In this document: in pieces, positions 55,030-64,000 of the stretch
Numbering within the stretch: position 1 is the first letter of the stretch
Layout of the letters: each line of letters starts with the position of its first letter
Source: Candidatus Omnitrophota bacterium
Lineage (GTDB): Bacteria > Omnitrophota > Gorgyraeia > Gygaellales > Profunditerraquicolaceae
Assembly: GCA_049517335.1 (NCBI GenBank)
Contig: JBEKSD010000006.1
Span: 1 to 64,000, forward strand
Direction of reading: 5' to 3'
Length of the DNA: 64,000 nt
The notes under the pieces: model-generated
Database searches by the model: none
Seen by the model: the letters and a program-made list of their open reading frames with translations, nothing else
Told to the model about the DNA's origin: nothing
Translations under genes and position numbers: made by a program

Positions 55030-56112
55030 ATGAAACATAAAATAACATTAATATCTGGTGATGGCATAGGCCCTGAAGTTGTAGACGCAGCTAAAAGGTG
55101 TATTGAAGCTACCGGAATAAATATTGTATGGGAAGAGGCCCTTGCCGGCGAAACAGCCCTTAAAATAACCGGCAGCCTGCTACCTGAGTCTACGTTAGAA
55201 TCCATTAAGAGGAATAAAGTTGCTTTGAAAGGGCCGATTACCACTCCTATCGGAACGGGTTTTCGTTCGGTAAACGTAGCTATAAGGCAGGCCCTTGATT
55301 TATATGCTTGTGTACGCCCGACTAAAAGTTATTCCGGAGTAAAGAGCCCGTACAAGGACATTGATTTATTAATTATCCGGGAGAACAGTGAAGATTTATA
55401 CGCCGGTATTGAATTTGAAGAGGGTAAACCGGAAACAGAAGACCTGATTAGAAGGATTGAAGGCAGCACTAAGAAAAAAATCCGGCCTGATTCGGGAATT
55501 TCCATTAAGCCTATTTCAATAACCGCAACCGCAAGGATCGCAAAATTCGCCTTTGATTACGCGCTTAAATCCGGCCGTAAGAAAATTACAGTTGTAACAA
55601 AGGCAAACATTATGAAATTCACCGACGGTTTATTTCTTAAGACTAGCCGTGAAACCGCTAAGGGATATGTAGGAAAAGTAATTTTTGAAGAAGCGCTTGT
55701 AGATAATATGGCTATGCAGCTGGCCCAGAAACCGGGGAACTTTGACATTTTACTCCTGCCAAACCTCTACGGCGATATACTTTCTGACCTTTGCGCGGGG
55801 CTAATCGGCGGCTTAGGTATTGCCCCGGGTGCTAATATCGGCGATAATATGGCGGTGTTTGAGGCAGTGCATGGTTCGGCACCTAAATATAAAGGGCTGA
55901 ACAAGGCAAACCCTGCGGCAATGATTTTATCCGGCGTGCTCATGCTCAGGTATTTGAAAGAAGATAAAGCTGCCGCCAGATTAGAGGAAGCGGTAAAAGA
56001 GATAATCGCAGAAGGTAAATCCGTAACCTACGATTTAAAACCTAACCGTAATGATCCTTCGGCAGCCGGCACAAAAGAAATGGCCGATGCCATCATTAAC
56101 AGACTAAGATGA
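55030..56112 (+). CDS. icd: Isocitrate dehydrogenase, probably NADP-dependent
   Basis: GDGIGPE, RSVNVAIRQ (isocitrate-type SxN), NLYGDILSD, HGSAPKY (KY is the NADP-type signature). Confidence 0.82.
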   Translation: MKHKITLISGDGIGPEVVDAAKRCIEATGINIVWEEALAGETALKITGSLLPESTLESIKRNKVALKGPITTPIGTGFRSVNVAIRQALDLYACVRPTKSYSGVKSPYKDIDLLIIRENSEDLYAGIEFEEGKPETEDLIRRIEGSTKKKIRPDSGISIKPISITATARIAKFAFDYALKSGRKKITVVTKANIMKFTDGLFLKTSRETAKGYVGKVIFEEALVDNMAMQLAQKPGNFDILLLPNLYGDILSDLCAGLIGGLGIAPGANIGDNMAVFEAVHGSAPKYKGLNKANPAAMILSGVLMLRYLKEDKAAARLEEAVKEIIAEGKSVTYDLKPNRNDPSAAGTKEMADAIINRLR

Positions 56113-57029
56113 AAATCAGTATAATTGGCTCAGGAAATGTCGGAGCAACAAGCGCCTTAAGGGTTGCCCAGGATTGCCTTGGAGAAGTTGTTTTAGTTGA
56201 CGTCGTAAAGGGCCTAGCAAAAGGGAAAGCTTATGATTTAGAAGACGCACGAGCCTTGCTTAAGATAAATTATAACATTGAGGGAACTGATGATTTTACG
56301 CAAATCAAAGGTTCTGATATTATAGTTGTTACTGCCGGCCTTGCCCGTAAACCCGGGATGACTCGGGAAGAACTTCTCCTAAAAAATGCCGCAATCTTAA
56401 AAGAAATCTGCCTAAATATCAAAACATTAGCCCCTCAGTCGGTATTAATCATCGTTACCAATCCTCTGGATGTGATGACTAATTATGCTTTGAAGGTAAC
56501 CGGTTTTAAAGGGAACAAAGTTTTTGGCATGGGCGTTAGCCTTGATGCAGCCAGATTTGCCAATATTATCTCAAAAGAACTTAATGTAAATGTTTGTGAT
56601 ATTGATGCTGTAGTTATCGGAAGCCACGGCGAAGGGATGCTCCCTTTACCCGGATTATCCGGTGTAAAGGGAGTGCCCCTTGAGAAATTAGCCGATAGCA
56701 ATAAAATAAAAGAAATGGTTACGAAAACTATTAACCGCGGAGCGGAGATTGTTGCTTTGCTCGGCTCCGGAAGCGCCTATTATGCGCCTTCGGCGGCAAT
56801 ATCAACTTTAGTGAAAGCGGTTGCTAAGAATGAAAAGCGTAAAATCGGCGTGTGCGCGTGCCTAAACGGAGAATACGGCTTAAAGGATGTCTGCCTTGGT
56901 GTTTCCTGTATCATCGGAAGGGAAGGCATCTTAAGCATTACAGAGCCGGAACTTAAGAAAGAAGAGTCGGAATTACTTAAGAAATCAGCAGAAAACATCC
57001 GGCAGCTTGTTGGACAACTGTCTCTTTAA
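56109..57029 (+). CDS. mdh: Malate dehydrogenase (LDH-like)
   Basis: GSGNVG, ARKPGMTR (Arg specifies malate), TNPLD, LDAARF, GSHG, GSAYYAP. Confidence 0.92.
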   Translation: MKISIIGSGNVGATSALRVAQDCLGEVVLVDVVKGLAKGKAYDLEDARALLKINYNIEGTDDFTQIKGSDIIVVTAGLARKPGMTREELLLKNAAILKEICLNIKTLAPQSVLIIVTNPLDVMTNYALKVTGFKGNKVFGMGVSLDAARFANIISKELNVNVCDIDAVVIGSHGEGMLPLPGLSGVKGVPLEKLADSNKIKEMVTKTINRGAEIVALLGSGSAYYAPSAAISTLVKAVAKNEKRKIGVCACLNGEYGLKDVCLGVSCIIGREGILSITEPELKKEESELLKKSAENIRQLVGQLSL

Positions 57030-57032
57030 AAT

Positions 57033-58322
57033 ATGTATGACTTAGCGATTATCGGCGCGGGCTGGGCAGGGTTTAACGCTGCGCAAAGAGCAAAAGAACT
57101 CAAGCTTAAAACCTGCCTGATTGAAAAGTCTTATCTTGGCGGCACCTGCCTTAATTCCGGATGTATCCCAACTAAATCCCTTATCCAAAGCGTAAAAATT
57201 TATTCCCTGGCTAAAAAATCGCTAGTCTTCGGGGTAGATTTGCAAAACCCCGTGTTTAATTTTCTTAAGATGCAGGAGAGAAAAGATAAAATCATCCAAC
57301 AGTTGCGTTCGGGAATGCAGTTTATGCTACAAGGAGTGGATTTTTTGAGCGCAGAAGCACAGATAACCGGCAATAATGAAATAAGGATAGGCGAAAAAAC
57401 CATCAACTCAAAATATATACTTATCGCCTGCGGCTCAAAACCCTATGAACTCCTCCCATTTAAATTTGACGGGAAGAAAATCATCTCAAGTAATGAAGCC
57501 CTAAAACTTACGGAAGCGCCGAAGAGCATACTCATTATCGGAGGCGGGGTAATCGGATGCGAATTCGCTTCCCTTTTTGCCTCTCTGGGTACGCTTGTTA
57601 CGATAGCGGAAAAAATGCCGCAGCTTTTACTCGGGGTAGATAAAGAAGCGGCGAAAAAGATTGAAACTGTTTTTAAGAAGAAAAAGATTAGGGTTAATAC
57701 GAATACTGATGCTTCAACTTTTAACTCAGGTGATTTCGCTTTAGTATTAATCTGCGTAGGAAGGGTTCCTAACACAGATGGTTTAGGGCTGGAGAAATTA
57801 GGCATAAATCTGGAAAAGGGAAGGGTCATCGTTGATGATTACCTGCGCACGAATATAGCGAATATTTATGCGGCAGGAGACTGTACTTCAAAAATAATGC
57901 TTGCCCATTATGCCGCTTATCAGGGGCTTATCGCAGCCGGGAATATTGCTCACCCGGTTAACCTGAAAAAAGCGAATAATACCATAATACCCGGATGCAT
58001 CTTCACTGACCCTGAGATTGCCAGTGTTGGTCTGAGCGAAGATGAAGCACGCGCAAGAAATATAGAAATTAAAATTCAGAGGTCCGATTTTCTTAGTTCG
58101 GGTATGGCAAGGATAATCGATGAGACCGACGGGTTTATTAAAATCATCAGCGAAGCAAAAACCGATGTAATCATAGGCGCCTCAATTGTCGGCGCAAAAG
58201 CCACTGAATTAATAGCAATACTTACCCTTGCAATATCAAAGCGGCTTAAAACCTCAGAGCTAAAAGATACTATATTTGCCCACCCGACTTTATCAGAAAG
58301 CATTCACCAAGCGCTGCATTAA
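57033..58322 (+). CDS. lpdA: Dihydrolipoyl dehydrogenase (E3), compact form
   Basis: GGTCLNSGCIPTK redox disulfide, GGGVIGCE, AAGD, HPTLSE. Confidence 0.92.
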   Translation: MYDLAIIGAGWAGFNAAQRAKELKLKTCLIEKSYLGGTCLNSGCIPTKSLIQSVKIYSLAKKSLVFGVDLQNPVFNFLKMQERKDKIIQQLRSGMQFMLQGVDFLSAEAQITGNNEIRIGEKTINSKYILIACGSKPYELLPFKFDGKKIISSNEALKLTEAPKSILIIGGGVIGCEFASLFASLGTLVTIAEKMPQLLLGVDKEAAKKIETVFKKKKIRVNTNTDASTFNSGDFALVLICVGRVPNTDGLGLEKLGINLEKGRVIVDDYLRTNIANIYAAGDCTSKIMLAHYAAYQGLIAAGNIAHPVNLKKANNTIIPGCIFTDPEIASVGLSEDEARARNIEIKIQRSDFLSSGMARIIDETDGFIKIISEAKTDVIIGASIVGAKATELIAILTLAISKRLKTSELKDTIFAHPTLSESIHQALH

Positions 58323-58951
58323 TGAAGGTTAAATTTTTTGATTTAGGGCTTACTGATTATACAACCTCCCATGATTTTCAAAAGCAACTCCTCAATAAAG
58401 TTAAAGACAACGAAATTGAGCATGCTTTAATTTCCTGCAGGCATTATCCGGTGATTACTTTGGGCAGGCAGGCTAAGTTAGAAAACCTGCTTGTCTCTGA
58501 AAAAGAGTTGGAGAAGAATGAAATAAAATTAATTAAAGTTGAGCGTGGGGGCGATATTACCTATCACGGTCCGGGCCAACTCACTATTTATCCGATTTTT
58601 AATCTCAGTCTGCTTAAGAAAGATATTCACTTCTTTATGAGGAATCTTGAAAGAGTTACAATTGCTGCGCTGATGCATTTTAATATTAAGGCAAGCCAAA
58701 GGCAAGGGCTTACCGGAGTTTGGATTAATAATGAAAAAATCGCCTCAATAGGTATAGCTGTCAGGCAGTGGGTTACTTGTCATGGCATAACCATAAACAT
58801 CAAAAGGGATGATTTAGGGAATTTTTCCTTGATTAGGCCGTGCGGTATGGATATAATGATGACGTCAATGGAAAGTATTCTGGGTGAAAACATTGATATT
58901 GATAAGGTAGGCAAAATTTTTAACAAGGAGATTATGCAATGGCCAAAGTAG
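58322..58951 (+). CDS. lipB: Lipoyl(octanoyl) transferase
   Basis: HYPVITLG, RGGDITYHGPGQ, KIASIG, HG, PCG. Confidence 0.95.
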   Translation: MKVKFFDLGLTDYTTSHDFQKQLLNKVKDNEIEHALISCRHYPVITLGRQAKLENLLVSEKELEKNEIKLIKVERGGDITYHGPGQLTIYPIFNLSLLKKDIHFFMRNLERVTIAALMHFNIKASQRQGLTGVWINNEKIASIGIAVRQWVTCHGITINIKRDDLGNFSLIRPCGMDIMMTSMESILGENIDIDKVGKIFNKEIMQWPK

Positions 58952-59169
58952 TTTTACCCGAATTAGGCGATAATATTACCAAGGCTACTGTTTCCTACTG
59001 GTATTTTCAAGCGGGGCAGAAGGTAGGGGAAAAAGAAGATTTAGTTGAACTTACTACTGATAAAGCAACTTTTAATCTTCCCAGCCCTGCTGCAGGGATA
59101 TTAAAACAAATATTCATTCAGGAAGGCGACACTGCCAATATCGGAGATGTGTTGGCAGAGATAGAATAA
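58939..59169 (+). CDS. Stand-alone lipoyl-domain protein
   Basis: LPELG, ELTTDKATF with the lipoyl Lys, SPAAG; 76 aa, no E2 catalytic domain. Confidence 0.9.
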   Translation: MAKVVLPELGDNITKATVSYWYFQAGQKVGEKEDLVELTTDKATFNLPSPAAGILKQIFIQEGDTANIGDVLAEIE

Positions 59170-59181
59170 CAAATAACCAAA

Positions 59182-59231
59182 AACATAAAAAAGGGAACGG
59201 GCTCCTTAGAGCCCGTTCCCTTTTTTATGTT
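59182..59231. terminator. Rho-independent terminator, bidirectional architecture
   Basis: Perfect 23-bp inverted repeat AACATAAAAAAGGGAACGGGCTC-ctta-GAGCCCGTTCCCTTTTTTATGTT. Confidence 0.92.
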
Positions 59232-59245
59232 ATCTTAGATACTTC

Positions 59246-59274
59246 TTTACAACGGGTAGTTTTATTAGTATATT
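59246..59274 (+). promoter_or_regulatory. Putative sigma70 promoter of the HTH / lipid cluster
   Basis: TTTACA-17 nt-TATATT; SD GAGGTG before ATG 59322. Confidence 0.6.
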
Positions 59275-59321
59275 TCTAATATATATATGATTATGGTAAG
59301 TATGTTAAAAAGAGGTGTGGT

Positions 59322-59534
59322 ATGGCAAAGACTAAGGAAATTTTAACAGCCAAAGAAGTTGCGGAATACCTTAATATTCATCCTCTCACCGTCCACAGGT
59401 ACGCCCGTGAAGGCAAGATTCCCGCCTTCAAGATAGGTACGGACTGGAGGTTCCACACGAAATATATTGAGAGATGGATTAAGGAAAAATCTAACCATCA
59501 GGTTCGCAACAAGGCACAGAAAAATTTACTTTAA
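59322..59534 (+). CDS. Excisionase-like (HTH_17 / MerR-type) small DNA-binding protein
   Basis: LTAKEVAEYLNIHPLTVHRYAREGKIPAFKIGTDWRF. Confidence 0.9.
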   Translation: MAKTKEILTAKEVAEYLNIHPLTVHRYAREGKIPAFKIGTDWRFHTKYIERWIKEKSNHQVRNKAQKNLL

Positions 59535-59554
59535 ATATCAGGCTTATCAGTTAT

Positions 59555-60475
59555 ATGAGAACCTTCGCATATATTACTACCCCTATAAATACCGAGCAGC
59601 TTAAGGAGCAGTGGCAGGCGTTAAAATACCTTCCGGATTATATTCTAAGTCGTCTTCGTAAATTACTCCCCAAATATAAAATTATAAAGTTAGGAAAATT
59701 TGAATCAGTGCAGGCAGAAACTATCAAAGGATACAAAATAGTCTGTCCTATTTTGGATGAATATAAACAGGATAATCTGGTCCTTGAAAGAATAATCTCT
59801 GCCTGTTGTATCGCCGAAAAGCTCGGCGTAAAATTAATCGGCGTTGGCGGTTATGCTGCTTTGGTTGCAGATAAGAATTACAATAAAATAATTAAGTCCG
59901 TAAAAATCCCGGTTACCTGTGGCAACGCATTGAGCGCATGGTGCCTTTTTGAAAAAGTTTACCGGCTGGCAAAGGCAAAGAATATCCCCCTTAAAGGCTC
60001 AACAATACTCTTTCTCGGAGCAGACACCCAAACCGGTTCTTTAGCCGCAAGAAAATTATCAGAATACACTGCTAAAATCATTATTGCGGGAACTGATAAA
60101 AATCTACTGGCAAAGCTTAAAGAAGTAATCCTGCAGGAAAATCATATTGAAGTAATCATTGAATCTAATATCGAAGCTGCATTGAATGAAGTATCCATAG
60201 TGGTTAATGCCGAAGAAGCTTATGAGCCTCTGCCTAAATTAAAAGAAAATACGATTTATTCCGGCGTAGAAGCCCTGCGTATCAGGGAATACGGGGCAGG
60301 CGTTAGTAGATTTATTTCTCCGTCGTTAGCCGAGGCAGCCCTGCTTGTTTTAGACGATAATGCCGTTAGTTATTCATTAGGCAAAAATAGTAATCTGGAG
60401 ATACTGGAAGAGATCGCGAATACCGCGGTGCGGCAGGGGTTTGAGGTCTGGGTGCCGGAAGCGCCGGTATTATGA
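59555..60475 (+). CDS. Divergent acyl-ACP-reductase-like / COG5322-type Rossmann protein
   Basis: N-terminal FAYITTP, IGVGGYAALV, PVTCGNALSA, degenerate GAxxxxG, LAEAALL..SYSLG..AVRQGF resemble the family by eye. Confidence 0.6.
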   Translation: MRTFAYITTPINTEQLKEQWQALKYLPDYILSRLRKLLPKYKIIKLGKFESVQAETIKGYKIVCPILDEYKQDNLVLERIISACCIAEKLGVKLIGVGGYAALVADKNYNKIIKSVKIPVTCGNALSAWCLFEKVYRLAKAKNIPLKGSTILFLGADTQTGSLAARKLSEYTAKIIIAGTDKNLLAKLKEVILQENHIEVIIESNIEAALNEVSIVVNAEEAYEPLPKLKENTIYSGVEALRIREYGAGVSRFISPSLAEAALLVLDDNAVSYSLGKNSNLEILEEIANTAVRQGFEVWVPEAPVL

Positions 60476-60480
60476 CAAAA

Positions 60481-61218
60481 ATGCTATTAAAGGGCAGGAA
60501 CATAATGATAAAGCGGGGCAAGCAGAGGGATCGGCCGCGCTATCGCGCTTGAGCTGGCAAAAGAAGGCGCGAATATAAGTTTTAGTTTTGCCAGCAGTGT
60601 AAAAGAAGCGCAAGCCCTTGAAAAAGAAATTAGCACGCTTGGCGTAAAAGCAAAAGCATTTCAGGTGGACATTAGGGACTTTGAGGCTGTTAAAACATGG
60701 GTTGAAGAAACAAAAAAAATCTTAGGCTCGCTGGATACGGTAATAAATAACGCCGGAATCATCAAGGACAAAGCACTTGCCCTTATGGATGTTTCGGAAT
60801 GGCGCGATGTACTCAATACTAATCTTGACGGGGTATTTAATTTATCCCGCTGCGCCATAATAACCTTTTTAAAACAAAAAAGCGGCAACATCGTTAATGT
60901 AACTTCTGTCAGCGGCGTGGTCGGCTTGCCTCGGCAAACAAATTATTTCGCGTCAAAAACCGGCATCATCGGTTTCACAATAGCGCTGGCAAAAGAAGTA
61001 GCCCTTTAGGGGGTGAGGGTTAATGCGGTAGCCCCCGGTTTTATTGAAACCGACATGCTCAAAGATTTAAAAGAAGAGCACAAGGCGCAGATATTAAAGC
61101 ATATCCCTTTGGCAAGGCAGAAGAAGTGGCAAAGACGGTAAAGTTTTTAATTTCCGATGCATCCGGGTATATCACGGGACAAACCATTATTATTGCCGGC
61201 GGAATGAGCATAGCTTAA
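60481..61218 (+). pseudogene. fabG: 3-oxoacyl-ACP reductase (FabG-like SDR) pseudogene with three lesions
   Basis: Motifs [30 protein letters not shown] are spread over several frames: frameshift ~60511, TAG 61007-61009, frameshift ~61117. Confidence 0.88.
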
Positions 61219-61220
61219 AT

Positions 61221-62462
61221 ATGGATAAAAGGATCGTAATTACCGGATTAGGCGTAGTGGCACCGAGTGGGATAGGGAAAGAGGATTTTTGGAAGGCGAA
61301 CATTGAGGGCGTATCCGCAGTTGATAAAATAAGAAGTTTTGATACTGCAGACTATGCCACTAAAATAGCAGCAGAGATAAAAAATTTTGACCCGCAAAAA
61401 TATCTCTCTCAAAAGCTTATAGACAATATTGACAGGTCTACACAGTTTGCTTTAGTAGCAGCAAAATTAGCTATAGAAGATGCTGGGATTAATCTTGAAA
61501 AAGATAATAAGAATTCAATAGGCGTATGCATTGGCGCTGGTTTAGGTGGGATGTTTTTTTATGAAAAACAAATCATTGCAGTGTATGAAAATTCAGTTAA
61601 AAAGATAGAACCTGCCTGTGTGCCTCGCATTACCCCTAATGCTCCTTCCTCGCAAATCTCTATTCAAAATGGCTTATTAGGTCCAAATATCACGGTTTCT
61701 ACTGCCTGCTCATCCGGAGGCCATGCTTTAGGTCTAGCTATGGACATGATAAAACTGGAAAGGGCAGATGTTATCTTGGCTGGTGGCACGGAAGCATCGA
61801 TAATTCCGCTTACTTTTGGGGCATTTAGCGTTTTACGAGTAATGTCTAGAAGGAACGATACTCCTAAAGAGGCAAGCCGACCCTTTGATAAAGATAGGGA
61901 TGGTTTTGTGATGGGTGAAGGATCGGCAATCTTAATCTTAGAAGAATTATCGCACGCAAAGAATCGCAAAGCAAATATCTATGCTGAGCTTATAGGGTAT
62001 GGGTCTACATCGGGTGCTTATCATATGGCAGCACCGGAACCCAAAGGTAAGGATGCAATCAGGGCAATGAAGATAGCACTAAATACCGCAGAAATAAATC
62101 CCCAAGATGTTGATTATATAAATGCCCATGGTACTTCTACAAAGGCAAACGATAAGGTTGAGACAGAAGCAATTAAAGCAGTATTTAAGGAGCACGCCTA
62201 TAAGCTAGCAGTAAGTTCAACTAAATCCATGATTGGTCATCCTATCGGTGCTGCAGGCGCAGTCGAAGCGGTGGTATCAGTTTTAGCCATCCAGCACAAT
62301 ATCGCTCCACCAACAATCAATTACAAAACACCCGATCCGGATTGTGATTTAAACTATGTACCCAACCAAGCGCAGAAACGTAAAATCGATACTGTACTTT
62401 CAAACTCTTTTGGATTCGGTAGTAATAATGCCGTATTAGTATTTAGGCGTTTTACTGAATAG
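61221..62462 (+). CDS. fabF: Beta-ketoacyl-ACP synthase II
   Basis: RIVITGLG, TACSSG (Cys), NAHGTST (His), KSMIGH (His), NSFGFG. Confidence 0.93.
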   Translation: MDKRIVITGLGVVAPSGIGKEDFWKANIEGVSAVDKIRSFDTADYATKIAAEIKNFDPQKYLSQKLIDNIDRSTQFALVAAKLAIEDAGINLEKDNKNSIGVCIGAGLGGMFFYEKQIIAVYENSVKKIEPACVPRITPNAPSSQISIQNGLLGPNITVSTACSSGGHALGLAMDMIKLERADVILAGGTEASIIPLTFGAFSVLRVMSRRNDTPKEASRPFDKDRDGFVMGEGSAILILEELSHAKNRKANIYAELIGYGSTSGAYHMAAPEPKGKDAIRAMKIALNTAEINPQDVDYINAHGTSTKANDKVETEAIKAVFKEHAYKLAVSSTKSMIGHPIGAAGAVEAVVSVLAIQHNIAPPTINYKTPDPDCDLNYVPNQAQKRKIDTVLSNSFGFGSNNAVLVFRRFTE

Positions 62463-62470
62463 GAGGAATT

Positions 62471-62722
62471 ATGCTATCTATAAATAGAGAAACCATACAA
62501 AAAGAAGTAAAAGAAATTATAAGCCAAAGGCTACATGTGTCAGTTGATAAGATAAGAGAAGATTCAAAGTTACGGGAAGATTTGGGAATGGACTCTTTTG
62601 GCGCCATCGATGTCGCCTTTGCTCTGGAAGATAAATACAAAAAAGAAATACCGAATGAGGATTTAGAGAATATTGAAACTGTAGATAATATTATAAATCT
62701 AATTATAAAGAATTTGAGTTAA
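62471..62722 (+). CDS. Acyl carrier protein
   Basis: 83 aa, acidic, DLGMDSF phosphopantetheine Ser, LEDKY, ETV; SD AGGAGG. Confidence 0.93.
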   Translation: MLSINRETIQKEVKEIISQRLHVSVDKIREDSKLREDLGMDSFGAIDVAFALEDKYKKEIPNEDLENIETVDNIINLIIKNLS

Positions 62723-62774
62723 GATGGTTTTAAATTGACAGCAGTTACAAGCGCTAAGACAAAAGGAGAATCCA

Positions 62775-63977
62775 ATGAAATCAATTGTTAAAGAAGATAA
62801 AATTATAGAACGGCCGCCAATTAATATGGCAAAAGATTATTCTAAAGAATTTATATCCCAGCGCTTATCTTGGCTTAGTAATAAAACCAATACAAAGTTA
62901 CACCACATTAGCCAATATTCCCAACCAAGTGAAGATATGAGAGGAAACATAGAGAATCCAATAGGTGTTTGTCAAATCCCCCTTGGTATTGCCGGTCCCT
63001 TAAAGATAAATGGAGAATATGCCAAGGGGGCCTTTTACATTCCGATGGCAACAGTAGAGGGAACTCTTTTAAAATCCTATGATTCGGGTATGGCTATTTT
63101 GACAAGAGCGGGAGGAGTTAATGTGAAGATTTTTAAAGATGAAATACACATTGCTCCTATATTTATACTAGATGGCTTAAATGATATAACTAAGTTTATA
63201 GAATGGATAAGAAATAATTTTAATAATATAAAAAAAGAAACAGAGAAAACAACCAAGCATGGAAAGTTATTGAGAATAGACCCTATTGTTGCGTCTAAAA
63301 GAGTTATCTTAAAGTTTAGTTATTTTACTGAAGACGCCATGGGGGCGAACATGGTGGCTATCGCCACAGAATCGGCTTGCAAATATATTTTTTCTGAGAC
63401 CGGTAAAAAATTCTTTATTAAATCAAATCTTTGTTCTGATAAAAAAGCCTCTATGCATAATTTTGTTGAAGGATATGGTAAGAGTGTATTTGCTGATATA
63501 TCTATCCCAGAACATGTTGTCAAATTTTTCGGCACTACGCCTAAAGAAATGTTTGATTATTATCATGCTTATGTTATTGGAAATTCTCATGCTGGCATGA
63601 TAGGAATGAATGGTCATGTAGCAAATGGGATAGGTGCATTATTCTTAGCTTGCGGTCAGGATGTTGCAGAGATAATAGGTGCCTCTATGACTATTTGCCA
63701 TGGAGAAGTAAGAGAAAATGGAGATGCATATATTAGTGTTTATATACCAAGTCTATTGGTTGGCACTGTAGGGGGAGGTGCTTCTTTAGTGACTCAACGT
63801 GAATGTCTAGAAGTGCTTGGTTGCTACGGTTCTGGTAAAGCCAAGAAATTTGCCGAAATTGCTGCAGCCGTTGCTTTGGCAGGAGAATTTTCTATCTGCG
63901 CTTCAATTGCTAATCATACCTTTGTTAAGGCTTTTATGAAATATGGTAGAAAATCAGGAGAAAAAGGAAAAGAATGA
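62775..63977 (+). CDS. Class I HMG-CoA reductase-fold protein with divergent substrate site
   Basis: ENPIG..IPLGIAGP, PMATVEG, DAMGANM, SDKK, GQD, GTVGGG, AGEFS. Confidence 0.88.
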   Translation: MKSIVKEDKIIERPPINMAKDYSKEFISQRLSWLSNKTNTKLHHISQYSQPSEDMRGNIENPIGVCQIPLGIAGPLKINGEYAKGAFYIPMATVEGTLLKSYDSGMAILTRAGGVNVKIFKDEIHIAPIFILDGLNDITKFIEWIRNNFNNIKKETEKTTKHGKLLRIDPIVASKRVILKFSYFTEDAMGANMVAIATESACKYIFSETGKKFFIKSNLCSDKKASMHNFVEGYGKSVFADISIPEHVVKFFGTTPKEMFDYYHAYVIGNSHAGMIGMNGHVANGIGALFLACGQDVAEIIGASMTICHGEVRENGDAYISVYIPSLLVGTVGGGASLVTQRECLEVLGCYGSGKAKKFAEIAAAVALAGEFSICASIANHTFVKAFMKYGRKSGEKGKE

Positions 63978-64000
63978 ATTTTTTTAAGATTTCCTGTTTG
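63974..64000 (+). CDS. Probable start of the next gene in the cluster (truncated by the window edge)
   Basis: ATGA overlap with the HMGR-like stop, SD-like AAGGA upstream, open to the window end (MNFFKISCL). Confidence 0.4.

Follow-up and report, generated by a model that had tools for sequence, protein, structure and literature searches.

The closest described counterparts of the locus reported here are systems in which an enzyme gene adjoins the gene for a membrane histidine kinase. In Bacillus subtilis, the desaturase gene des lies beside the gene for the membrane histidine kinase of the DesK-DesR system, which reads the state of the membrane, and the product of the enzyme feeds back on the sensor. 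In the CqsA/CqsS and LqsA/LqsS systems, the gene for the synthase of a hydrophobic, acyl-derived hydroxy-ketone signal adjoins that of a sensor kinase with several transmembrane (TM) segments. The stretch analysed here, referred to as the window, comprises 64,000 nucleotides from the genome of an uncultivated Candidatus Omnitrophota bacterium from peat (positions 1-64000 of contig C6 in source genome G000; C6 ends at 64551). At its end, a ketosynthase (KS), an acyl carrier protein (ACP) and two reductase-fold proteins, one resembling the reductase AAR and one HMG-CoA reductase (HMGR), are encoded upstream of a seven-TM (7TM) histidine kinase. These genes are read as one operon, reaching from a promoter near 59246 to a weak hairpin on contig C14, which would form a 'make-and-sense' module for a reduced acyl product; we assign this reading a probability of roughly 0.55.

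G-numbers denote genomes, C-numbers contigs, L-numbers loci and P-numbers proteins. Open reading frames (ORFs) were called naively and then labelled by BLAST against a few queries. Seven co-oriented genes on the + strand follow each other at tight spacing from 59322 to beyond 64000:

59184-59229, no strand assigned: strong, bidirectional intrinsic-terminator hairpin (20-bp stem, nine G-C pairs, T run), which closes the upstream lipB and lipoyl-domain genes
59246-59274, + strand: sigma-70-like promoter candidate of the operon (TTTACA-17-TATATT, 10/12, consensus match only)
59322-59534, + strand: HTH_17 small DNA-binding protein, excisionase/MerR-like (PF12728 61.5 bits; TIGR01764 47.9 bits, cut-off 28.8)
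59555-60475, + strand: AAR-like Rossmann reductase of 306 amino acids (weak PigE and TIGR04058 matches; family profile)
60473-61218, + strand: fabG (3-oxoacyl-ACP reductase) pseudogene with three lesions
61221-62462, + strand: FabF-type KS (KAS II), a second, dedicated copy (TIGR03150 575 bits)
62471-62722, + strand: ACP with a DSF motif, a second, dedicated copy (PF00550 46 bits)
62775-63977, + strand: HMGR-like reductase (PF00368, HMG-CoA_red, 380.7 bits)
63974-64000, on to C6:64551 and then C14:1-1611, + strand: 7TM-GAF histidine kinase, of which the window holds the start (PF16927; contig join)

The preliminary description, made from the letters of the window, had listed a strong terminator followed by the operon's own promoter, co-oriented and tightly spaced genes, and one more gene starting at 63974. 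All of these were located in the sequence, and the coordinates and the Pfam and NCBIfam scans agree with its labels. Promoter-like sites are not enriched across the region (18 compared with 14.8 +/- 4.1 in shuffles).

The gene starting at 63974 encodes the histidine kinase and overlaps the stop of the HMGR-like gene by 4 nt. The last 20 nt of C6 are the first 20 nt of C14, the reading frame is kept across the join, and homologous kinases span it. The protein of about 720 residues consists of HisKA_7TM, GAF and HATPase_c domains. PF16927 scores 57 bits on C6, above the cut-off of 28.6, and places it among the HisKA_7TM sensor kinases; the GAF and HATPase_c domains lie on C14. Downstream of the kinase gene on C14, a weak hairpin and a promoter-like site precede thioredoxin, pta, ackA and panD, and because these housekeeping genes come next, the operon ends one gene past the window. 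A longer cluster had been anticipated beyond the edge; what lies there is this single gene, and the sensor kinase, which had been overlooked, is the best-conserved partner of the HMGR-like gene rather than the KS. A complex prediction for an HMGR-like protein with the 7TM and GAF part of its adjacent kinase (the pair from L214) scored 0.00, which counts neither way. In the literature searched, with subscription journals outside its coverage, HisKA_7TM is named only as a sensor domain in census and review papers, and no ligand was found.

The association of enzyme and kinase recurs in a defined part of the HMGR tree and extends over many bacterial phyla. In a tree of 143 HMGR sequences from the fetched loci (FastTree, midpoint root), the window's protein falls into a superclade of 77 members, none of which has Arg at the position of human R590, compared with 63 of the 66 sequences outside it; inside the superclade, the clade that holds the window's protein has a support of 1.0. 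Arg is also missing from this position in all 119 listed database relatives. The HMGR locus sets are the best 80 of the scans, and the relatives in them are not independent; the clade was reduced to 34 loci by setting aside a nested actinobacterial subclade of 14 and dropping one duplicate contig. A HisKA_7TM kinase gene follows within 400 nt in 23 of the 28 clade loci with at least 600 nt of downstream sequence (24 of 28 within 5 kb), and at none of 66 ordinary HMGR loci. In the nested actinobacterial subclade, the kinase is present in none of the ten loci with room. Seven clade loci have a same-strand KS at a distance of up to 5 kb, namely the window, L008, L100, L103, L111, L115 and L135; in L008, a thioester-reductase-domain protein takes the place of the AAR-like gene. 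A sister clade has 27 members, which to judge from record titles are mainly Acidobacteriota. Of its 18 loci with room, 13 carry one KS or more and 11 carry two; the neighbouring genes encode ACP, FabG, TetR, an acyltransferase and an amine-oxidase-like flavoenzyme. It had been asked whether the gene combination would be found in any other genome; it is present in two sister HMGR clades, and because of this recurrence it is more than chance.

A recurrent kinase-free cluster is found in Acidobacteriota and others (L012, L013, L019, L021, L122, L127, L133, L158, L162 and L177). Its genes encode an ACP, two KSs of which the second is divergent, TetR, an acyltransferase, either FabG or an amine-oxidase-like flavoenzyme, and an HMGR-like protein in which the D690 position is Glu.

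Relatives of the operon's proteins also carry signalling domains. Among the 119 listed relatives of the HMGR-like protein there are 45 PilZ-HMGR fusions, two REC-HMGR fusions and two fusions of a 4HBT thioesterase to HMGR. PilZ-KS fusions are found in L100 and L103, and a REC-ACP fusion (L146:3772-4728) directly follows an HMGR-kinase pair. Named database relatives, among the matches listed, are annotated as 'hydroxymethylglutaryl-CoA reductase' or 'PilZ domain-containing protein'. FadL-type outer-membrane channels are encoded upstream in L005, L015 and L114. In L100 (2766-7436), two tandem proteins that combine 7TM, GAF and GGDEF domains with an OmpR-type DNA-binding domain are encoded just upstream of a cassette of HTH, PilZ-KS, ACP, HMGR and kinase; one of the two was scanned, and the fusion makes an unusual diguanylate cyclase with a DNA-binding output. 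Within the same literature, no HMG-CoA reductase with a link to PilZ or cyclic di-GMP (c-di-GMP) was found, nothing relevant on gene clusters of HMG-CoA reductase, KS and ACP for fatty alcohol, and nothing relevant on HMGR in Omnitrophica, Elusimicrobia or Nitrospirae. The statement of the preliminary description that no characterised pathway pairs these proteins is in keeping with this, as no description of one was found in the searched literature.

The HMGR-like protein is probably not a mevalonate enzyme, and the bacterial clade to which it belongs is read as re-purposed. Among solved structures, its best match is the archaeal class I HMGR of Methanothermococcus thermolithotrophicus (6HR7, E 2.8e-93). 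With this enzyme and human HMGR (1DQ8), it shares fold, length, the cis-loop DKK motif, N755 and the catalytic residues E95, K223 and D296 (human E559, K691 and D767), whose roles are described in PMC7503714. On TIGR00533, however, it scores 351.7 bits, below the cut-off of 441.8 for class I enzymes, and three positions are changed: S104 stands at human R568, I126 at R590 and F387 at H866, the last also aligning with the His of 6HR7. The same review describes R568 as a residue of the CoA pocket and H866 as the residue that protonates the leaving CoA thiolate. Phe at the H866 position is common to the three nearest relatives P0002, P0003 and P0005 (61-64% identity), and among the 119 listed relatives this position is F in 11, L in two and D in two. 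E559, K691, N755 and D767 are kept in 75 of the 77 superclade members. A role of R590 in binding the HMG carboxylate is not stated in the passages of PMC7503714 consulted, and R590 is therefore used only as a signature of the clade. Unlike class I HMGR genes, the gene of the window is coupled to a 7TM kinase and stands beside a KS and an ACP, its relatives are fused to PilZ or REC, and a mevalonate pathway was not found in the source genome. This genome has IspE (246.6 bits, cut-off 138.7), IspG and IspH, its single GHMP kinase is IspE, and HMG-CoA synthase (HMGS) gave no hit in this genome, which is 92% complete. In the organism's own family, HMGR occurs in two of 36 genomes, and both of these enzymes retain the Arg. 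The Arg-retaining HMGRs at L003 (G018) and L004 (G012) may represent a second kind of orphan HMGR.

The KS and the ACP of the operon are additional to housekeeping fatty acid synthesis (FAS). An intact housekeeping set of fabG, acpP and fabF lies on C12 of the same genome; the operon's copies are thus not the only ones. The KS scores 575 bits on TIGR03150, above the cut-off of 493.75, which makes it a member of the FabF family, and it aligns from end to end with Thermus FabF (1J3N). Its ACSSG, HGTST and GHPIGAAG motifs fall on the Cys, His and His motifs of that enzyme, which bears out the intact Cys-His-His KAS that had been described. We take these to be the active-site residues. The KS is 56-61% identical to the KSs of the HMGR-kinase cassettes L100, L103, L008 and L135, compared with 48% to the genome's housekeeping FabF and 38-40% to the KSs of AAR-like cassettes. 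The ACP scores 46 bits on PF00550 (cut-off 20.8) and reads LGMDSFG, with the Ser of the DSF motif present as had been noted, and stays below both AcpP cut-offs (TIGR00517, 59.3 versus 70.45 bits; NF002148, 68.8 versus 71 bits); it is 50% identical to the ACP of L008 as against 36% to the genome's own AcpP. Compared with FabF, AcpP and FabG of type II FAS, the operon thus resembles that system in a KS above the FabF cut-off, an ACP fold and a short-chain dehydrogenase/reductase (SDR) ketoreductase fold, and differs from it in that its copies are secondary, its ACP lies below the AcpP cut-offs, its fabG is dead and its KS clusters with those of cassettes in other phyla. The combination to which attention had been drawn, an HMGR-fold reductase together with an ACP and a FabF-type KS, is real and comes on top of the set on C12.

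Two further KSs and an ACP are encoded on C19 of the same genome. They belong to a separate type II polyketide synthase (PKS)-like cluster (L097:1017-9305, - strand), which contains an ApbA-type reductase, two KSs, a B12 radical-SAM enzyme, an ACP, a cyclase, an SRPBCC protein and an SDR.

The second reductase-fold protein of the operon is related to AAR; that there are two such proteins, AAR-like and HMGR-like, agrees with what had been seen. Its family profile matches AAR 6JZZ (E 2.3e-33) and PigE 4PPM (E 2.3e-29) over nearly the full length. The homology of the AAR-like call stands, as does the Gly-rich Rossmann motif shared with AAR (6JZU/6JZZ) and the N-terminal domain of PigE; the catalytic Cys, however, is not there, the protein scores 38.4 bits on TIGR04058, far below the cut-off of 449.7, and the operon shows no aldehyde-deformylating oxygenase as a partner. 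Five relatives, also of 306 amino acids, are 62-66% identical, and the family is found in 121 of 401 genomes of the phylum (E <= 1e-10). A 7TM kinase gene directly follows the AAR-like gene in 11 of the 29 best loci. HTH_17, the conserved first gene of the cassette, heads eight of these 29, and in five of the eight FabG and/or a KS adjoins the AAR-like gene. The HTH of the window is 81% and 73% identical to those heading the AAR-like cassettes L210 and L212, compared with 41-47% to the HTH proteins of HMGR cassettes, and the fabG remnant is 54% identical to FabG of AAR-like cassettes as against 44% to the genome's own FabG. Judged by these identities, the front of the operon (HTH, AAR-like, fabG) matches a cassette common in the phylum, and its back, from the KS and ACP to the HMGR-like protein and the kinase, matches one that other phyla carry; as HTH, fabG and KS point to two different cassette types, the operon is a fusion of both, with the dead fabG at the seam. 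The neighbours of AAR-like genes in relatives include PlsC-type acyltransferases, SRPBCC domains and B12 radical-SAM enzymes, and in G090 (C1:205175-215965) an AAR-like gene precedes an array of four HisKA_7TM genes, all within some 10 kb.

The fabG listed in brackets by the preliminary description is present, and it is dead. Compared with an intact relative, it shifts frame near 60509-60512 and again near 61108-61117 and has an in-frame TAG between these sites, at 61007-61009, and with two frame changes and one TAG it does not give the intact reading frame of a FabG (TIGR01830). An independent family search of the genome likewise reported fabG in two separate pieces with '1 TAG'. Contigs from two other peat runs match at the first lesion (X2, 60405-60611) and at the TAG (X3, 60890-61040), and this agreement between samples makes assembly errors unlikely for these two lesions; the third is covered only by a run that may be the source. 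Programmed recoding was rejected because the three lesions differ in kind. Just before the TAG, the window differs from three public runs, with T instead of G at 60981 and A instead of T at 61000. One run has a break between two contigs here, the first stopping at 61003 and the second starting at 61009. Strain variation or an assembly seam may be the cause.

The arrangement can also be viewed from the side of the kinase. The 30 best HisKA_7TM matches were taken, 29 of which have a readable upstream gene, and in 20 of these 29 the gene directly upstream encodes an enzyme. These enzymes comprise acyl and reductase families (AAR-like, four; HMGR-like, one; KS, one; KAS III, one), methyltransferases (S-adenosylmethionine type, three; ICMT/PEMT-type, three) and others (amine-oxidase-like flavoenzyme, two; HpaB-like, two; aldehyde dehydrogenase, class I/II aminotransferase and HAD hydrolase, one each). 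The remaining nine upstream genes encode further 7TM or histidine kinases (six), receiver proteins (two) and one unidentified protein. An enzyme gene followed by a 7TM kinase gene is thus a general pattern, of which the window is an elaborate case. At L235 (274-1473), the gene that immediately precedes a 7TM kinase encodes a class I/II aminotransferase, which is the fold class of CqsA, and the locus resembles the CqsA-CqsS arrangement.

Two unrelated families, HMGR-like and AAR-like, of kinds known to reduce acyl thioesters, share the slot before the same kind of membrane sensor, and one of the two is accompanied by a KS and an ACP of its own. It is this shared slot, together with that KS and ACP and the PilZ and REC fusions of relatives, that leads us to read the locus as a product-making module coupled to a kinase. 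In the mechanism proposed, the dedicated FabF-type KS would extend a primer on the dedicated ACP, and the resulting 3-oxo- or 3-hydroxy-acyl thioester would be reduced by the AAR-like and HMGR-like proteins, acting as thioester-type reductases, to an aldehyde, an alcohol or a 1,3-diol. Because it has, like its closest relatives, Phe in place of the CoA-protonating His described in PMC7503714, the HMGR-like protein may perform only the aldehyde-to-alcohol half-reaction. Together with Ser at R568, this Phe would fit an ACP-bound or aldehyde substrate, and the retained HMG-pocket residues would leave room for a short, carboxylated, mevalonate-like product. The translationally coupled 7TM-GAF kinase would be the cognate membrane sensor of the product or of the resulting state of the membrane, and/or tune the activity of the enzymes. 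What the analysis shows directly are the identities of the genes, the recurrence of their arrangement, the patterns of residues and the lack of those mevalonate-pathway genes that were sought; what the enzymes act on, what they make and which way enzyme and kinase influence each other are what we infer.

Such a module would resemble DesK-DesR in that a gene of a lipid-type enzyme lies directly beside a multi-pass membrane histidine kinase. However, DesK has five TM segments, whereas the window's kinase has HisKA_7TM and GAF, the enzymes differ, no response regulator is adjacent in the window, and in the window's relatives regulation appears on the enzymes themselves via PilZ and REC fusions. 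The likeness to CqsA/CqsS and LqsA/LqsS would lie in an enzyme gene beside a multi-TM sensor kinase; unlike in those systems, the enzyme families here are a KS, an ACP, an HMGR-like and an AAR-like protein. PKS beta-branching cassettes likewise use HMG-type chemistry on ACP-bound intermediates beside a KS and an ACP, but they use HMG synthase and enoyl-CoA hydratases, not a reductase, and HMGS gave no hit in the source genome.

Several observations weigh against the make-and-sense module. HisKA_7TM genes are numerous, occurring in 118 of 151 sampled genomes of the phylum with up to ten per genome, and 27 of the 34 clade loci are without a KS nearby, so that the link to KS and ACP is frequent and not universal. 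A Pfam scan of the kinase gives no HisKA domain, and no response regulator gene adjoins it. In the AAR-like protein, Ser stands where AAR has the catalytic Cys that forms the acyl-enzyme; only two of 26 aligned family members have Cys there, and the subfamily of the window is without 27 residues. The fabG is dead, and ketoreduction is therefore a step that the operon does not encode. Among the HMG-pocket residues listed in PMC7503714 that were checked, S684, D690, K691, K692, K735, N755, D767 and E559 are kept and only H866 differs (L853 lay outside this check); the substrate could therefore still be a carboxylated compound resembling HMG and not a simple fatty acyl chain. The node of the superclade has a support of 0.76. 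The HMGS model is insensitive, being positive in four of 14 control genomes and missing two archaea, and the Arg-retaining genomes of the same family, G012 and G018, likewise have one GHMP kinase and no HMGS hit; as these two gave the same result as G056, the contrast in mevalonate genes did not separate the clades. The function proposed is read from gene context and residues.

These points bear unevenly on the alternatives. An ordinary HMG-CoA reductase, serving isoprenoid synthesis or the catabolism of HMG-CoA or mevalonate with KS, ACP and kinase as incidental neighbours, would account for the full-length PF00368 match of 380.7 bits, the close match to 6HR7, an identity of 40-45% to archaeal enzymes, and the retention of the catalytic E, K, D and N and of the HMG-pocket residues named above from PMC7503714. 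It does not fit the score below the TIGR00533 cut-off, the replacement of the CoA-protonating His by Phe or the loss of R590 and R568, nor the adjacency of the kinase (23 of 28 versus 0 of 66) and the frequent PilZ and REC fusions, and in the source genome genes of the methylerythritol phosphate pathway (IspE, IspG, IspH) were found while mevalonate kinase and HMGS were not; it is the least probable of the readings considered. That the HMGR-like protein is an accessory, ligand-binding partner of the kinase, reporting for instance levels of NAD(P)H or acyl thioesters, is very unlikely: the gene pairs are tight and often overlap, the catalytic His has been lost recurrently (11 of 119 F, two L, two D), and most clade loci are without a KS or ACP nearby, but 75 of 77 have preserved E, K, N and D, the residues of hydride transfer, which argues for retained catalysis, the PilZ and REC fusions look like regulated enzymes, and the place just before such kinases is taken by many enzyme families that are unrelated to one another.

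The preliminary description had itself favoured a bulk membrane-lipid or type II PKS-like cluster, for a fatty alcohol, an ether lipid or a hybrid lipid, running many genes past the window. A KS, an ACP and two reductase folds in one operon are what such a cluster would contain, and the acyltransferases, SRPBCC domains and B12 radical-SAM enzymes near AAR-like genes of relatives would suit it as well; however, the cluster stops one gene later, its best-conserved partner is a sensor kinase, and the operon is without an acyltransferase, a glycerol-ether enzyme, a second KS, a cyclase or an exporter. With one KS, no second KS or chain-length factor and no cyclase, the label type II PKS-like does not hold, nothing points specifically to ether lipids, and we consider this explanation distinctly unlikely. 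It is unlikely, too, that the locus is an evolutionary relic, in which two cassettes were fused by rearrangement and no longer form a working pathway, although the three fabG lesions (the first two seen again in contigs from other samples), the chimeric origin, Phe at H866, the lack of an adjacent response regulator and the 27-residue deletion of the AAR-like protein are all in its favour. Against decay, the remaining six ORFs are unbroken and as long as those of relatives, and the Phe and the short AAR-like form are common to relatives at 61-66% identity and are therefore stable variants rather than fresh damage; the intact housekeeping FabG on C12 could supply the ketoreduction. The reading as a make-and-sense module thus remains the preferred one.

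Upstream of the terminator, the region from 55030 to 59169 encodes, with labels judged from the translations, isocitrate dehydrogenase, malate dehydrogenase, a dihydrolipoamide-dehydrogenase-like flavoprotein, a LipB-like octanoyltransferase and a stand-alone lipoyl-type domain of 76 amino acids.

It is tempting to speculate beyond the single locus that HisKA_7TM kinases and their upstream enzymes form a large, undescribed family of synthases and receptors for small hydrophobic signals, in which the Arg-less HMGR clade would be a new signal synthase; this wider proposal is doubtful, and is offered tentatively. Its hosts would be uncultivated anaerobes (Omnitrophota, Elusimicrobiota, Nitrospirota and others), in which 3-hydroxyacyl thioesters from a dedicated KS and ACP would be converted to autoinducers of the 1,3-diol type or resembling mevalonate, with output gated by c-di-GMP through the PilZ fusions and by phosphorylation through the REC fusions.

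If the make-and-sense module is real, the HMG-CoA reductase fold would gain a second function outside isoprenoid synthesis, and the re-purposed clade would be recognisable by a simple residue signature. HisKA_7TM, so far an orphan sensor, would be tied to specific enzyme partners and hence to candidate ligands that can be tested, and PilZ-ketosynthase, PilZ-HMGR and REC-ACP fusions would link c-di-GMP and two-component signalling directly to acyl-chain chemistry. For the uncultivated phyla that carry these genes, such modules would offer a way into cell-cell signalling or membrane homeostasis.

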